64,000 nt of DNA from Escherichia phage vB_EcoM-pEB20. Numbering within the stretch: the stretch's first letter is position 1; each line of letters starts with the position of its first letter. The notes beneath the pieces are model-generated. The model was not told the DNA's origin and made no database searches. It saw only the letters and a list, made by a program, of their open reading frames with translations. The stretch lies in the sequence record OP114733. One strand, 5' to 3'. The position numbers were made by a program, and so were the translations under genes. Below, in pieces: positions 14,052 to 24,233 of the stretch.

Positions 14052-14711
14052 TTATTTAGCCCTTCCTAGTATTCGGATCGCTTGGTTGCATATAGCCGCT
14101 AAGCGATCTTCCTCAAGTATATTACTCCCCTTATACCAATACATCGTCACAGTTCCAGCGTAGATGTTATCCAAATTAAAGTATGGACAACTATACATAT
14201 AAGAAAGTTCGGCAGTCTTAGATTTTGTAGGCAAAAATGCAAATTCTGATTTAGATGAGAAATGACGGCCACTTAAATGAATTATATATTCATTGGCCGT
14301 TTTATCCACCGGGAATCCGCCAAGGGACTTTTCAGAAATTGTGCTAGGTAGTTTGCCTTCATAAGCTATAAGGTCGACGAAATAATTTAAGTTTTTAGGT
14401 CTGAAAGAATACACAGCACTAAAATCTGCACCAGATGAGATATGAACTATTTGCAGTTGTTCTAGAGCCGCAGATTCAAAACGTAAAGCTCGTTCTTTTT
14501 GGATTATTTCAGTATAAGTATCATACTTAGCTCTTACATAATAATCCAGCAAAATACTTCCTTTGTACCATATTAGTGCCATTAGGAACAAAAGAATAAT
14601 TACCGCTACTCGGGACATTAAAACCTTTCCAGTAGCGTTATCTTTGAAAATACGATCTAGCAACCCAAATAGAATATCACTAGGTGAAAATGACACTTTT
14701 GGTGTTGCCAT
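14052..14711 (-). CDS. t: holin T
   Basis: 219-aa ORF; SFSPSDILFG...NATGKVL...FRPKNLNYFVD...YMYSCPYFNLDNIYAG matches recalled T4 holin. Confidence 0.93.
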   Translation of the reverse strand: MATPKVSFSPSDILFGLLDRIFKDNATGKVLMSRVAVIILLFLMALIWYKGSILLDYYVRAKYDTYTEIIQKERALRFESAALEQLQIVHISSGADFSAVYSFRPKNLNYFVDLIAYEGKLPSTISEKSLGGFPVDKTANEYIIHLSGRHFSSKSEFAFLPTKSKTAELSYMYSCPYFNLDNIYAGTVTMYWYKGSNILEEDRLAAICNQAIRILGRAK

Positions 14712-14720
14712 AATACCTCC

Positions 14721-15272
14721 TTACTTAAAGATATTTATAATCGCTTTGAAAATAGATTTGTTTTCAAGGTCAGGGAATTTAGGGAATTCGCCGCCAAGAT
14801 GTTCATGTTTTTCTAAAAGGGCAAAGAATTTTTTGAGCTCTTTAAATTTTCGTTTTTCTTCTCTATTAGCAACCTCTGCGTCAATAAGAGAACTTAAAAC
14901 ACCGAATAATTTATAGAGTTCATGAATTTTCTTGTCACGTTGAACTACGCGTTTATATGCTTCATCTTCCTTCCACCCGTCACCGGACCAAATGTCAAAT
15001 TCACCAGGTTCTTCTGTAGTAACATTTTGAAGAGTACCTGGAGTGTCAATAACAATTTTTTGCTTATCATAAGTCCATACTGTTTTTCCACGATGGTCTT
15101 CGACATATACCCATTCTTGTTCGCGTTCATCAAATACAACAGCATAGCCTTCTTTAGGGTCTAAAGGTTTTTTTGGTGTCGAATGAGCCGGAAATCCTAC
15201 GCCTTTTAATGGTTTATAATTTTCTTCTTTGTAAAATTCTTTAGTGTCAAAATAATAGTGATAGAGTTTCAT
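14721..15272 (-). CDS. 38: gp38 tail-fibre assembly chaperone (T4 type)
   Basis: 183-aa ORF; M.LYHYYFDTKEFYKEENYKP...ALLEKHEHLGGEFP matches recalled T4 gp38. Confidence 0.92.
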   Translation of the reverse strand: MKLYHYYFDTKEFYKEENYKPLKGVGFPAHSTPKKPLDPKEGYAVVFDEREQEWVYVEDHRGKTVWTYDKQKIVIDTPGTLQNVTTEEPGEFDIWSGDGWKEDEAYKRVVQRDKKIHELYKLFGVLSSLIDAEVANREEKRKFKELKKFFALLEKHEHLGGEFPKFPDLENKSIFKAIINIFK

Positions 15273-15274
15273 AT

Positions 15275-15296
15275 TATAAAAAGGGACCGAAGTCCC
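15275..15296 (-). terminator. hairpin GGGACTTCGGTCCC + T-run (minus strand) between genes 37 and 38
   Basis: UUCG-loop hairpin with T5 on the minus strand. Confidence 0.6.
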
Positions 15297-15302
15297 TTCT
15301 CC

Positions 15303-18300
15303 TTATGCTAAACGAACGATATAGTTAAAAGCAACGTTTTTAACTGTGTTTTCTGTATTTCCTGTGGCATTTACAGTTATTGTATGTCCATGGGAACCAA
15401 TTGCAACAGTATGAGAATGAGCACCAATACCCACAGTATGCGTATGAGCACCAATACCCACAGTATGAGCATGGTTACCCGTAGCGCTAGTAGTTCCTGA
15501 CCAACTATGAGTGTGGGCACCATCTGAAGAAGTTTTGGCTATATTCGACTCTGCAGTAGCACCATTCACGGTTCCAGTGAATTTAGCGTTGGCGTTTGCA
15601 CCTACACTATTATATCCGTCATAGAATATGTTATTGGGTATGCCGGCTTGTATCTGAGGGCCTGAACGCGCGTGTTGGTGCGCACCGGCGGAACTAGTAT
15701 TACCGCTCACTGTATGGTTATGGTTACCAGTGGTATTACTGGTCTTAGTACCATAATCAAAGCTTGAAGTCGTTTTGCTACCGTAATCAAAACTAGAAGT
15801 GGTCTTAGTACCCAAATCCGTGTTTGATGCACTTGCACTATGGCTATGTGACTTAACACCGTCTGCTTCTGTACTTAATACAGCACGCCCAGATGGTTTA
15901 CCCTTGATAGTTTGACCACGCATATCAGGCAGAGCGCCGGAAGGATACACCGCAGCTAACTTAGGATACAAGTCAGTATCAAACGTCTGGCCTTCCATGA
16001 CGGCATAACCTTCAGGAGGTGTATCAGTAGGCCAAGGAATCGGAGCACCAATTGGATAACTCGACACAATATCTATCTTAAGGTTATTTATTGTGGTATT
16101 CAAGTTAGCAAAATTACCAGAACCACCAGTAATATTACCGTCAGTACCAATACGAACATTACCAGCGCCTAATTTACCAGGAGAATAAAAATCACCGTTT
16201 TTATTAAATTCCCATCCAAGATCCTTTATAACAGCACCAGTAGAAACGCCGTCACCACCTTCGTGATAATGAACTCTAAAGTTACCACCATTAATTAAAG
16301 TACCAATAGAATAGCAACTATTATTTTGAACGTATCTTTGTTTCACAATAGGAACATAAGTGCTTGTATCTGTTCTATCAATATTCATATAGAACGGAGC
16401 ACGAACGTTTTCATTATTTTGTGAAGCAAAAGAACCGGCTCCAGCAGGTCGTGCAGTATCAGTACATTCAGCGTCGATATATGCCGATTGTCCTAATTGC
16501 ATACGGTAATTAGGAGAAATGCGACTATGACTAGTTATAACAACAAGTTTACTATCATTATCAACGGTCACCATATTACCGCCTGCACCGTCATCACCTA
16601 ACGTGACGGAATGACGCATTTGAACCATACCGTTATGAAGTGCGATGCTCAATGGACGAAGATTACCTATTTCACCATTTTCTCCTTGGTCTTTAAGAGT
16701 AGGAATAATGTGCAATGCCGTTTCTGAACGACGGAAAATTGCGCCATATTCGGCGTTCCAAATTCTCAATGCATTTGCTGTTCCACCAAATTTAGCTTGT
16801 CCGTTTACAGATAATCCATTATTTGCAACTAAACTTGATTCACTAACAATAGAACCGGCCGATATAATACCACCACCCACACGTAAAGCGCCAGAAATTC
16901 TAAATTGAAGAGAACCCACAGTTTCAGAACCCGTTGGAGCTAAACGTTGAGAATAAAAATGATAGCCCTGACCGTCATACAATTCAAATACGGTTTCACG
17001 ATTACCGGCAGTAGGGTCGAATGCATTACCCCAAGCTTTCATAGTTAGATAACTTTTATTTTGTCCTGCACGGGTCCCGGCGTTCCATTGGATAGTTCTC
17101 GAGCCATCAACTTTGCTAGGGGCACCAAATTTAAGGCCTTCGGTATTATTAGAACTATTTAAAAATAATTCGTTGTCTAATTTAACAGGTTGGATAGAGG
17201 AAATAGTGCCGTCAGCATAAAACTGTACATTATTAGAGCCAGTTACCAATTTCAAAATACCGGGGTTAACTTCCATGCCTTCTTGGGTATTAATGTTAGT
17301 TTTGCCTTTACCACGGAAATAGTGGTTCATTTTACCGCCTGAGTTATAGCCAATATGTGTCTGGCCGTCTCCAGCAGTGTTTTCATCAGCTTGTGTTTGA
17401 ACCGATAAAAACGCGGCGTTGTTTCCAGGCATGTTCCATGTAGCACCTTGGTCTTCTGAGCGACCAAATATACCTTTACGAGTACTACGGAAACTATCTG
17501 GAGTAACAGATGCAACGGAATAACCTCCACCAACTAAATCATAAACACCTTGCTTAATATATTTCAGACCGGTTACAGTGTCACCGAGAACAAGATACTT
17601 ATCGCCCATTACACCGACGTTACCATAATCACTAGACGGGAAACCCGTAGTGAATGTACCTAATGCAAGGCTATTACGGCCTGCCATTCGTCCGTCATTA
17701 CGAATGCCATATTGTTTAGATGATGGAGTATTACCTGTCCACCAAGACATTTCATCAGCCTGGCCAGTCTGAGCAGTACAAAGCTCATGCCACATAGTGC
17801 CACCTGATTTAGCTCGAACTTTACGAAGATAGTTTACTCCGTTAGTTTCACCAGTTCCAGGATAAACATACTGAACTAATGATTGCGAATCGTATTGTCC
17901 AAAGGCTTTATAATCATGATTAATTAAATTAACACTAATAGTTGGTGTACTAATAGAAGTTAAAGCAGTTAATTTGCGTGCCTGGAAGATACCGCCATCA
18001 GTAGAAATGAAATGAAATTCTGAATTTTGAGCCCCTGCTGCGGTTCCTTGACGAACGCGCATTGTAATTACGCCTTCATTTTCAGACTGCGGTTTTGAAT
18101 ATAAAACACCTCTCTCTGATCCATTTGTATTTTCAAACCAAAGATGGGCATTGGAAGTATCATTTGTTGCTCTTGCGTAAAATGACCCTCGCATAGATCT
18201 AAAAACTAAGGCGGATACGCCTTCAGTAGAACCAATAGGTCCATTTACGGTCATTCCACCTGTTTGTACATAATCGCCGTTTAATTTCAAAAGACCATTG

Positions 18301-19191: not shown

Positions 19192-19216
19192 CAAAAATGG
19201 GAGACCGAAGTCTCCC
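19191..19216 (-). terminator. hairpin GGGAGACTTCGGTCTCCC + T-run (minus strand) after gene 35
   Basis: 8-bp stem, UUCG loop, followed on minus strand by ATTTTTG. Confidence 0.65.
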
Positions 19217-19221
19217 AAAAT

Positions 19222-20357: not shown

Positions 20358-23300
20358 TTATTCAATCCACTCGAATTTAACAGATTTATTCACAGGGTCT
20401 GGAATAATGCGGACATTACCAATCCTTAAGAAATCCCTTATTGTCAAGTTTCCGATTGTTGCATTATCAGAAGGTAAAGCACCAATATCAGATGGCTGAG
20501 GAGGGTTTCCACCATCAAATACCTGAACAAAACTTGACCAAGAATTTTTAGTTTTCTGCCATGTACGTGTCCAACGGGTTGTACGTGCTTCTGGAGTTGT
20601 TGGATAAGTAATCCAATCTTGGTAAAGCGAATCAAGTGTGTTACCAAACTGAGTCAATGTACCAGGAGATTTAACTTCTTCACCACGTTCTAAGTATGGA
20701 AGCCCAGTCACTTCATTAGTTTTTTCAACCATTTTAAAATAACCCGGGAACTGGTTATAAGTGGCTGAATCGTTAATATCGATTGACCAGAATCCTACGG
20801 TATCAGATGTTGGTGCACGGGTATATAAGTCAGCAGTTTTAGAACCTTGTGAACGAATTCCTGGATAAACCGTTAAACCACCTGAATTTATAGTAACACC
20901 TTTGGCAATAACAAGCCCTTCGGCAATTGTAACCTGACCGGATGTATTATTAATAGCTAAAGGACGTAATCCATTAAAACCACCAGTCTGATCACCTGCT
21001 GCAGTGAGCAAAAAATAGGTATTAGTGCCATCATTACGAATAAAGAATCCGTAATCACCACTAATTGCTCTGAAAGCATTTGCAGACTTGCTGATGAATT
21101 CACCATTAGCAGTAACTGAACTACCAAATGTTGCAACGCCGTTCGCGTTCAAAGAACCCGAAGCATTAACGTTTATTGGCATTACAGTACCATTGATACT
21201 AAACGTTATATTCCCAGCTTTATTGCGTTGAGAATAAAAGTGATTAGACGTTTCATCGCCAACTTCAAATATCGTAGAACGACTTGTATCAGAACCACCA
21301 GCGAATTGGTTACCCCATACTCGGATATTCATGGTTTGAAACGGGTTATTTCCAGTTTGTGGTCCTTTTTCAAATATCAAACGAGTTGAAGCACCTGTAT
21401 TACGAATAGTAAATGTGCTATTAGCAGCTAAAGAACCACCAAATTCACCAGTACTAGATGATACAAGAGGGGCACTCAGATTCGTTTGTTGGGTTAATGT
21501 TAGTGAACCATTAACCGTCTGTGCAATGTCCCTACGAATGAACTGAGATGAATCTAGACCATCCAATAAATTCGTGTCAGCAGCTTTTGCTTTTAATGGC
21601 AAATAATTTGCTAATACACGGTTTAATTCATATGGTGATACTGCATAGCTATTTTTCTCGTATAGCTCTAAGTTCTGTGTAGAACCGACTGTATCATTAC
21701 CAACGAATGTAATTGAACCGGATGAAGTTTTAACAAAACCTCTTATCGCCGTAGTAGCAGCCCATGTTGGTTCACTCTGGACAATCCATTTTAAATTCTT
21801 AGGAGATACAGCAGTATTAGCAGAAGTTCCTGTTACAGTTTCAGCCTGAGTAGCAACTTTAATTACGCCTTCAGACGTTTCAGTGGACTTAGTCCCTAAA
21901 AGCTTTTTAGGAGTAATAAGAACATCATCTAAAGTTCCTGCATTAGATTCTGCCTGGGTCGCTACGCGAAGTGTACCACGTTGTGTTTCATTTGCTTTAG
22001 AAATATCAAGAGTATAATGGTTCCACAAGGTTCCTTCTTCAATAAGTCCGGAATCAGAATTAACACTGGTACGGTCAGAAGAATCAAAATGAGTTTTAAT
22101 TTTCAGTGGAGTTGAGATACGAGTATCATCAGTTCCAGTATCAAATTCAACTTGCGTAGCAATTTCGGCTATGCCGGATAATCCTTCTGTCGCTCTCCTA
22201 TCATTTAACGTCTTAGGCGTTACTGCACGTGTATAATCAGCCCCAGCATTAGTTTCTGCTTGCGTAGCAATTTCAATTAAACCAATACGTCCATCAGTAG
22301 AAGTTTTCTTATGTAGTGTTTCAGGAGTTACTACAGCGTGAGAATAACCTGCTTGTGATTGACCAGCAATTACTTCACTATCAATAGCTAAAATTACTGC
22401 GCCTTGTTGAGCATAAGTTGCTTTATATTGGTCAAGGGCTTTAGGAGAAATAGTTAAATTATTTACGGTTTTATTATAAACGTTAGTGCCTGCAGCCCCA
22501 CGAGTTTCAGCAGGAGTAGCAGAAGTAGTCGATACATATTTAACTATACCAGACAGCGTTTCAGAGCCCTGACGTGCCTGCAATTTCTTAGGCGTAATAA
22601 TCGTTGTGTCATCAAGACCAGCATCGGTTTCAGCCTGAGTAGCAATTTCAGCAAGACCGCGACGAGTTTCAGTTGCTGTACGCTCATTTAGTTTTTTAGG
22701 CGTAACAATAGTATCGTCCACAAATGATGCTGTGGAATTCTGGTTAACTTGTGCTGTTGTAGCAATTTTAGCGATACCACGTCGAGCTTCAGTTGCTGTA
22801 CGATTTGCCAACGTTTCAGGAGTAATAGCCACTTCTTTAGCTGGAGTATTCTCTAAATCAACATTTGCTTGCGCTTGAGTAGCAAGAGCAATAACACCTA
22901 AACGAGCTCGTGTAGCATCAGATCCAGCATCAACACGTTCTACCGTAGGGACGTTTTGTTGAACAACCCAATAACGTGTACCAGCAACGGTGTCTTCGAT
23001 ATACGATAATTCTAATACAGGAACATATGAAGTAGTGCCATTGAATTCTAGTTCAGTAACAGAGACCCATTGAGCACCAGGTGGATATTCAGAACGTTTA
23101 GGGAACTGAAGCAACGCAACAGAAGAAGCAATTGTATCACCTTCGGCCGCTTTAATTTTTACTGTTTGGCCTTTACGCATGTAGTTCATTGAAATTTTAA
23201 CAGTGTCACCACTCAAAATTCCGGTAGGCAGCGTAAGATTGATAGTTCCGGTTGTAGCATTATTTGTGCCAAAAATAAGAACTTCTTCATTTGGACGAAT

Positions 23301-24233
23301 ATTTGAATCCGCACGGATAATACGAAGACGCGATTTCTGGTCGCCTTCCCATATACGCCATAAACTATTTGCAGCATCAAAAACAAAAAACGCGTCGGAG
23401 TCATTTCTGCCTTCGGCAGTATGAGTCCCGACTTCACCAATAGACGTTGTATCATCAAATGTTTTAACAATTGTATGATACAGTGGGTTTAATCTATCTA
23501 AATCGACTAGGCTGATTATATCACCATTGTTAGCATTACGTGGAAGTGTAATGTTGATTGGTGCTGCACTAGTAAAACGACGAACGATAAAATCATTTGC
23601 TTGTGCTTGATATGGTGTCGCAGGTGTAACAGTGATTGATTCTTTACCGTAATCAATGATATACATCTGCCACAAACGATTGCTAAACACAAACACTAGT
23701 TGTGAACGTGGTCGTGTCATTAAAACTGTACGAACTTGTTCACCTCTAAAGTTTAAAATACTCTGCACAGACGCGTTAATCTGTACTTTAACTGTCCCGG
23801 TTCTTCCACCAATATCAGCCAAAACAACAGTATCACCATCAACCGGCGCATTTGGCAACGTGAAAACCATATCATTGCCGGCACCAGTGTTAACCGAAAT
23901 CGATTCACCTGAAGAAAGTTGATAAGTCCCAGAAGCGACAGTTATCCATTGTGCATCGGTACGAACTGTACGCCATTGTAAAAGGTTAAATGCCCCGGAA
24001 GGAGACACGATATCATTTATTGCTTGATATAAACGGTTGTCATAAAGAACAACAAATCCTTTGTTATATCCACGCGTAGAATCATATACTTGAACGGTGT
24101 TTTCTTGTACCAGGAAGTCAACGTTTACGCCATCAGTACCTACTGTACGGTCGGCTAATGCTACGTTAACAATCTTGTCGCCACCGGCGTCCAGACCGTC
24201 TTCGGCTCTGAACTTACGTTTGATGTCGGCCAT
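20358..24233 (-). CDS. 34: long tail fibre proximal subunit gp34
   Basis: 1291-aa ORF; N-terminus MADIKRKFRAEDGLDAGGDKIVNVALADRTVGTDGVNVDFL matches recalled T4 gp34. Confidence 0.93.
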   Translation of the reverse strand: MADIKRKFRAEDGLDAGGDKIVNVALADRTVGTDGVNVDFLVQENTVQVYDSTRGYNKGFVVLYDNRLYQAINDIVSPSGAFNLLQWRTVRTDAQWITVASGTYQLSSGESISVNTGAGNDMVFTLPNAPVDGDTVVLADIGGRTGTVKVQINASVQSILNFRGEQVRTVLMTRPRSQLVFVFSNRLWQMYIIDYGKESITVTPATPYQAQANDFIVRRFTSAAPINITLPRNANNGDIISLVDLDRLNPLYHTIVKTFDDTTSIGEVGTHTAEGRNDSDAFFVFDAANSLWRIWEGDQKSRLRIIRADSNIRPNEEVLIFGTNNATTGTINLTLPTGILSGDTVKISMNYMRKGQTVKIKAAEGDTIASSVALLQFPKRSEYPPGAQWVSVTELEFNGTTSYVPVLELSYIEDTVAGTRYWVVQQNVPTVERVDAGSDATRARLGVIALATQAQANVDLENTPAKEVAITPETLANRTATEARRGIAKIATTAQVNQNSTASFVDDTIVTPKKLNERTATETRRGLAEIATQAETDAGLDDTTIITPKKLQARQGSETLSGIVKYVSTTSATPAETRGAAGTNVYNKTVNNLTISPKALDQYKATYAQQGAVILAIDSEVIAGQSQAGYSHAVVTPETLHKKTSTDGRIGLIEIATQAETNAGADYTRAVTPKTLNDRRATEGLSGIAEIATQVEFDTGTDDTRISTPLKIKTHFDSSDRTSVNSDSGLIEEGTLWNHYTLDISKANETQRGTLRVATQAESNAGTLDDVLITPKKLLGTKSTETSEGVIKVATQAETVTGTSANTAVSPKNLKWIVQSEPTWAATTAIRGFVKTSSGSITFVGNDTVGSTQNLELYEKNSYAVSPYELNRVLANYLPLKAKAADTNLLDGLDSSQFIRRDIAQTVNGSLTLTQQTNLSAPLVSSSTGEFGGSLAANSTFTIRNTGASTRLIFEKGPQTGNNPFQTMNIRVWGNQFAGGSDTSRSTIFEVGDETSNHFYSQRNKAGNITFSINGTVMPINVNASGSLNANGVATFGSSVTANGEFISKSANAFRAISGDYGFFIRNDGTNTYFLLTAAGDQTGGFNGLRPLAINNTSGQVTIAEGLVIAKGVTINSGGLTVYPGIRSQGSKTADLYTRAPTSDTVGFWSIDINDSATYNQFPGYFKMVEKTNEVTGLPYLERGEEVKSPGTLTQFGNTLDSLYQDWITYPTTPEARTTRWTRTWQKTKNSWSSFVQVFDGGNPPQPSDIGALPSDNATIGNLTIRDFLRIGNVRIIPDPVNKSVKFEWIE

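Follow-up and report, generated by a model that had tools for sequence, protein, structure and literature searches.

The 3′ end of gene 37 in Escherichia phage vB_EcoM-pEB20 (OP114733) most probably encodes a T4-type gp37 tip, with a stem one rung longer than that of T4 and a head whose most likely ligand is OmpC; we put the probability of this whole reading at roughly 0.8. The repeats emphasised in the initial annotation belong to a conserved structural stem rather than to a receptor contact, and both specificity and variation reside in the head at aa 941–992. The window is the whole analysed stretch of DNA, 64,000 nucleotides long. Gene 37 and its neighbours in it are as follows:

20358–24233, minus strand: gp34, 1291 aa
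Minus-strand neighbour of gp37: gp35, 375 aa
Minus-strand neighbour of gp37: gp36, 219 aa
15303–18491, minus strand: gene 37, long tail fibre distal subunit, a mosaic protein of 1062 aa (open reading frame, phrog_1699, Pfam Collar)
15273–15302, minus strand: gp37–gp38 intergenic stem-loop GGGAC-UUCG-GUCCC
14721–15272, minus strand: gene 38, T4-type tail-fibre assembly chaperone, 183 aa (T4 gp38 identity, Pfam Caudo_TAP, phrog_105)
14052–14711, minus strand: t holin

The order gp34-35-36-37-38-t is that of T4. gp37 falls into the PHROG family of the long tail fiber protein distal subunit (phrog_1699, E=1.5e-290), and aa 815–862 match the Pfam Collar domain. The 24 kb flanking gp37 show ~93–95% identity to Mosigvirus genomes (JS09, mogra and mar005P1), and the source phage is a Mosigvirus, i.e., an RB69-like T-even phage. 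Within gp37, T4 is the nearest relative of the first ~200 aa, the middle part reaches only 12–58% identity to DCP548, with Bas40 and Bas42 the better matches, and the last ~260 aa have 100% identity to DCP548. For the gene as a whole, the best phage records reached ~87–94% identity at partial coverage, with no close match over its full length. The list of open reading frames contained none of at least 60 aa on the plus strand across 15303–15850, and the promoter and terminator scans gave background levels only.

The product of gene 38 aligns end to end with T4 gp38 at 66% identity (E=2e-90), and its only matches to protein families are to those of tail-fibre assembly (phrog_105, "tail fiber assembly", and Pfam Caudo_TAP). 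Because the identity to T4 gp38 extends over the whole length, this short protein is the chaperone and not a T2-type adhesin, as the initial annotation had held. In T2 and T6, gp38 is a glycine-rich adhesin of ~260 aa that caps a processed gp37 (PMC3157838). The present phage resembles that system in that gene 38 follows gene 37, but its 183-aa gp38 is not the ~260-aa form with glycine-rich motifs and hypervariable segments, and its gp37 has a collar, needle and head of its own. A gp38-type chaperone gene immediately downstream of gp37 is instead a mark of the T4-type tip. At the junction of the two genes, the gp37 stop codon and the Shine-Dalgarno sequence AAGGAG share nucleotides, and the UUCG-loop hairpin (folding dG −15.7 kcal/mol, z −3.9) separates the latter from the gp38 AUG. 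The T4 junction has the same layout with changed stem bases, and the arrangement is consistent with the hairpin-bridged ribosome-binding site described for T4 gene 38. The terminator scan flagged a similar hairpin, with a perfect 8-bp stem, a UUCG loop and a following T-run, in the gp35–gp36 intergenic region at 19198–19217.

When the gp37 C-terminus was compared by phmmer with the T4 crystal chain 2xgf_A, aa 785–1062 aligned to chain residues 2–242 (E=7.3e-87), the homology extending across the whole D10–D11 region of the solved T4 structure. The indels came down to a longer head and two additional units, a 10-aa FDYG unit and a 9-aa HxH unit. The alignment to T4 gp37, proposed in the initial annotation as a check, thus gave a repeat number different from that of T4, by one FDYG and one HxH unit. 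With the T4 tip (PDB 2XGF, D10–D11), the present one shares the collar, the out-and-back HxH needle and the C-terminal strand, with homology over the C-terminal 278 aa, as well as the gp38 chaperone and the locus order. It differs in having eight HxH motifs instead of seven, together with the two added units, and overall the tips are 55% identical. The segment 15303–15850, assigned to the gp37 tip in the initial annotation, does cover the needle and head (aa ~881–1062), whose parts could be delimited as follows:

15672–15848, minus strand: outgoing (ascending) arm of the needle stem, aa 882–940 (repeats and T4 alignment)
15750–15806, minus strand: two KTTSSFDYG units, at aa 896–904 (15780–15806) and aa 906–914 (15750–15776)
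15516–15671, minus strand: variable head or tip domain, aa 941–992 (drop of identity between alleles)
15549–15551, minus strand: codon 981, GAG (Glu), a hypervariable site of the head (allele comparison and DNA probes)
15384–15515, minus strand: returning (descending) arm, aa 993–1036 (repeats and T4 alignment)
15306–15383, minus strand: C-terminal strand going back into the collar domain (near-invariant in 48 aligned homologues)

The eight HxH motifs flank the head as three on the outgoing arm (aa 882, 924 and 938) and five on the returning arm (aa 993, 1007, 1016, 1025 and 1034), which is the disposition of a T4-type tip, and in the 48 aligned homologues their histidine columns show little or no variation. 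Besides its HxH motifs, the outgoing arm contains three 10-aa modules (DLGTK, FDYGSK and FDYGTK) and aligns to T4 residues 883–931 with one extra 10-aa unit. The returning arm carries tandem 9-aa units, SHGHTITVN included, and aligns to T4 966–1000 with one extra 9-aa unit. As to the C-terminal strand, D10 of T4 takes in residues 1010–1026 (PMC6957217). An AlphaFold2 monomer of aa 785–1062, computed with a 48-sequence alignment, was uninformative on fold and register (mean pLDDT 49.8, pTM 0.20), a poor model being expected of an interwoven, chaperone-dependent and metal-bound trimer.

At the DNA level, Tandem Repeats Finder detected a 27-nt period at 15406–15473 (2.5 copies, 90% matches, score 115). 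The repeat search extended the 27-nt family to 15382–15489 plus 15712–15738, and found a 30-nt family in three copies at 15742–15831. The doubled KTTSSFDYG and the tandem HxH units of the initial annotation were both recovered. These repeats are not due to chance, since they are conserved across hundreds of homologues.

An important question is how the two repeat families relate to each other. Needles were collected from 269 homologues, made up of 120 proteins from a word-indexed search, 147 cluster representatives, and phage and IMG/VR loci. The word-indexed protein search gave mostly prophage fibres, not full-length gp37, and served for the arm-matching statistics; the frequencies of T-even alleles were taken from the phage collection instead. 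In 267 of the 269 homologues, the HxH span of the outgoing arm exceeded that of the returning arm by 13–16 aa (Pearson r 0.956), albeit these numbers represent few independent events, since the sequences fall into only ~7 length classes. The gaps between HxH motifs are mirror-symmetric and follow the scheme 12+10a, 14 × b, head, 14 × b, 9 × a. T4 belongs to class (a,b) = (2,1), with gaps of 32 and 14 before the head and 14, 9 and 9 after it, and the present phage to class (3,1), with 42 and 14 before and 14, 9, 9 and 9 after. The other classes observed were (2,0), with 32 before the head and 9, 9 after it; (3,0), with 42 and 9, 9, 9; (4,0), with 52 and 9, 9, 9, 9; (1,2), with 22, 14, 14 and 14, 14, 9; and (3,2), with 42, 14, 14 and 14, 14, 9, 9, 9. 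Because the gap patterns mirror each other, one outgoing 10-aa module goes with one returning 9-aa unit, and every 14-aa HxH module with its partner on the other arm: the present tip has three outgoing D-[L/Y]-G modules compared to two in T4, and four returning tandem 9-aa HxH units compared to three, plus one 14-aa HxH module per arm. The FDYG and the HxH repeat families are therefore not separate features but the two sides of a single extra stem module.

Two homologues departed from this pattern. One, the only clear exception to arm matching, is a locus (L001:2067-2310) on a closely related metagenomic T-even contig (IMG/VR UViG 3300030021_000020), in which a clean 27-nt deletion has removed one HxH unit, leaving three outgoing modules, with both FDYG units kept, against three returning tandem units. 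This may be a repeat collapsed in assembly or a viable mismatched stem; unless the assembly is collapsed, strict matching of the arms is perhaps not obligatory. The other (P0230) is without one outgoing HxH motif. Further homologues (P0066 and P0246) had ten HxH motifs (4+6) and eight (4+4), the latter built from a single FDYG-type module plus two 14-aa ones; stems in nature thus span a broad series of discrete lengths.

On the proposed reading, the region encodes the collar (D10) and the needle (D11, stem and head) of gp37, the distal adhesin subunit of the long tail fibre, with gp38 acting as its folding chaperone. The three chains of the trimer would each, as they do in T4, run out from the collar, form the head and run back, whereby HxH motifs of the three chains would coordinate metal ions along the axis. 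In the T4 needle, there are seven irons along the axis, and the histidines serve as structural iron ligands (PMC6957217). D11 of T4 spans residues 882–1009, with contacts between G921 and F970 and between G964 and H929 (PMC6957217). These contacts and boundaries give a T4 register of i+j ~1891–1893, in which D893-L-G and F902-D-Y stand at the height of H998/H1000 and H989/H991 on the returning arm. An outgoing D-x-G module might thus pack around the metal site made by a returning HxH unit. The one extra rung would make the stem ~2–3 nm longer than in T4 and bring the predicted metal sites from seven to eight, the eighth probably also occupied by iron. This predicted eighth site and the register rest on the sequence plus a few published T4 contacts. 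The more general proposal, that every outgoing D-[L/Y]-G module cradles one returning HxH metal site and that codon 981 may in addition be a natural single-site switch of host range, is a tentative one, which we regard as rather doubtful.

The long-needle form is not peculiar to this phage. Over the last 798 nt, the nucleotide identity was 99.9% to DCP548 and 98% to HX01, and the best 40 phage matches to this segment were all without length change. DCP548, HX01, AV110, Bas40 (FelixPlatter) and Bas42 (AndreasVesalius), which belong to Mosigvirus/Tequatrovirus, have the same module count and head type as the present phage and differ from it in residue 981 and in the upstream two-thirds of gp37, which form another mosaic. 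The 203-aa tip was found at no less than 80% aa identity in 111 phage records, in comparison to 44 for the T4 tip at the same threshold, 20 of which were at least 99% identical; the form with eight HxH motifs is thus commoner in the phage collection than the shorter form of T4. The same architecture also occurs in lambda-like Stf proteins and many prophage fibres. The Stf of HK629 has an eight-HxH (3+5) needle with two FDYG units and, at 62% identity, is nearer to the present tip than T4 is; it likewise has its assembly protein (Tfa) encoded immediately downstream, but it is a short siphovirus fibre with a head that differs in sequence and is 7 aa shorter. Overall, the long-needle allele is common, ordinary and already known, with ~100 or more deposited T-even phages carrying it. 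The "expanded" HxH array of the initial annotation is therefore true only relative to T4 (eight motifs against seven), since T4 is the rarer, shorter form in the phage collection, and there has been no special expansion here.

This distribution also bears on whether recent slippage or duplication in this very phage produced a new host range, similar to the T4 duplications of Tetart et al. 1996. The DNA could in principle support such an event, neighbouring HxH units being identical at 22 of 27 nt with a 24-nt exact stretch in common, and the deletion in the metagenomic contig described above is a natural variant of the same 27-nt size. Moreover, duplications in the adhesin domain of gene 37 are documented to expand the host range of T4, according to the title of a work cited in PMC3157838. 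The repeat number, however, is the same in the best 40 phage matches, in the 111 records and in lambda-like Stf and prophage fibres. In addition, both FDYG units have the same amino acid sequence, whereas their DNA agrees at only 23 of 30 nt, with synonymous differences at 5 of 9 conserved codons, so that the FDYG duplication is old and has been kept by selection on the protein. Given this silent divergence and the broad occurrence of the architecture, a recent slippage expansion was rejected as extremely improbable.

The differences between alleles are concentrated outside the stem. In comparison with FP43, the outgoing arm was identical at 59 of 59 positions and the returning arm at 42 of 44, but the head at only 23 of 52. 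With F27, the corresponding figures were 56 of 59, 43 of 44 and 15 of 50. The T4 head, with ~34 aa against 52 aa here, has practically no sequence similarity to it (identical at 4 of 34 positions). Mutagenesis of T4 has traced the binding of LPS and OmpC to residues 932–959 of the tip (PMC6957217). Since the arms are near-invariant while the heads change, and since T4 binding maps to the tip, the repeats are scaffold, and in the proposed model specificity would be held by the 52-aa head of the Bas40/Bas42/HX01 type. The initial annotation had seen in the gp37 tip the determinant of receptor specificity and a hotspot of host-range variation. This stands insofar as the C-terminus is the adhesin; the repeats, however, are in the conserved stem, and it is the head that varies. 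Head swapping at the gene 37 locus was proposed by Tetart 1998, as cited in PMC3157838, and it is plausible that the conserved arms serve as junctions for it.

Could the HxH and FDYG units nevertheless bind the receptor themselves, e.g., laterally to LPS or OmpC, with stem length tuning specificity? A transversal docking model of Bartual et al., as it is reported in PMC5221442, involves both head and needle, a review has T4 gp37 touching LPS at several points along its length (PMC9603124), and several discrete stem lengths persist in nature. On the other hand, the arms hardly vary among alleles with completely different heads, and loss of LPS or OmpC binding in T4 maps to residues 932–959 and to histidines whose role in binding iron is structural (PMC6957217). 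Moreover, T4 with its short stem and Bas40/42 with their long stem both use OmpC. We consider receptor binding by the stem unlikely and hold to the head as the site of specificity.

The head of the present phage is identical to those of Bas40 and Bas42 at 51 of 52 positions each, as expected for a head of the OmpC type. The dependence of Bas40 on ompC was shown and complemented (PMC8594841), and Bas42 has been used as an OmpC-dependent phage (PMC12557735). With these near-identical heads, and with AV110 (96% nt identity) predicted to use OmpC (PMC10844046) and a large screen in which gp37 D10/D11 with variable tips served 17/17 OmpC-specific Straboviridae (bioRxiv 10.64898/2026.04.02.716166), OmpC is very probably the primary receptor of this phage, as judged from the head sequence. 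By analogy with T4, LPS may contribute to binding.

Residue 981 is the sole difference of the head from those of Bas40, HX01, AV110 and DCP548 (G981E). At this codon, GGG (Gly) is found in HX01, mobillu, AV110, DCP548, teqskov and Bas40, TGG (Trp) in Bas42, CGG (Arg) in APCEc01, and TCG (Ser) in phiD1, JS09, mogra and p000y, in every case within identical flanking DNA. Among 14 compared phages, five residues thus occur at position 981 in near-identical heads, or six if the divergent head of FP43 is included. A 55-nt probe with GAG at codon 981 had 0 matches in 50,697 phage records, while the GGG control probe had 48. The site looks like one under diversifying or adaptive change. This raises the alternative that G981E has switched or broadened receptor use, e.g., to another porin or the LPS core, so that OmpC is no longer the primary receptor. 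Besides the hypervariability of the codon and the lack of a match for Glu in the phage collection, it is favoured by single substitutions in the T4 tip that change the use of LPS or OmpC (PMC5221442, PMC6957217). Yet the other 51 residues of the head are identical, and Bas40 (Gly) and Bas42 (Trp) differ at exactly this position and are both OmpC-dependent. A change of primary receptor is therefore improbable, and codon 981 more likely tunes binding than switches the receptor, since both the Gly and the Trp variants use OmpC.

The current understanding of T-even adsorption is not overturned by these results, the matched-module rule and the codon-981 polymorphism being the only points of novelty, and mildly new ones. 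If the matching of modules holds true, stem length would change only by matched pairs or by exchange of the whole cassette. If, furthermore, it is undescribed and stem length is functional (e.g., in reaching through LPS/O-antigen), it would amount to a design rule for fibre length. In engineering or interpreting tips of the T4 or lambda type, any gain or loss of units would then have to be paired between the two arms, and the conserved arms, which encode the HxH motifs, would offer natural junctions for head swaps. For annotation and host-range prediction, there is good confidence in placing the phage in the class of gp37 adhesins of the OmpC type. Where related phages differ in host range, it is the 52-aa head, and codon 981 in particular, that should be examined rather than the repeats.
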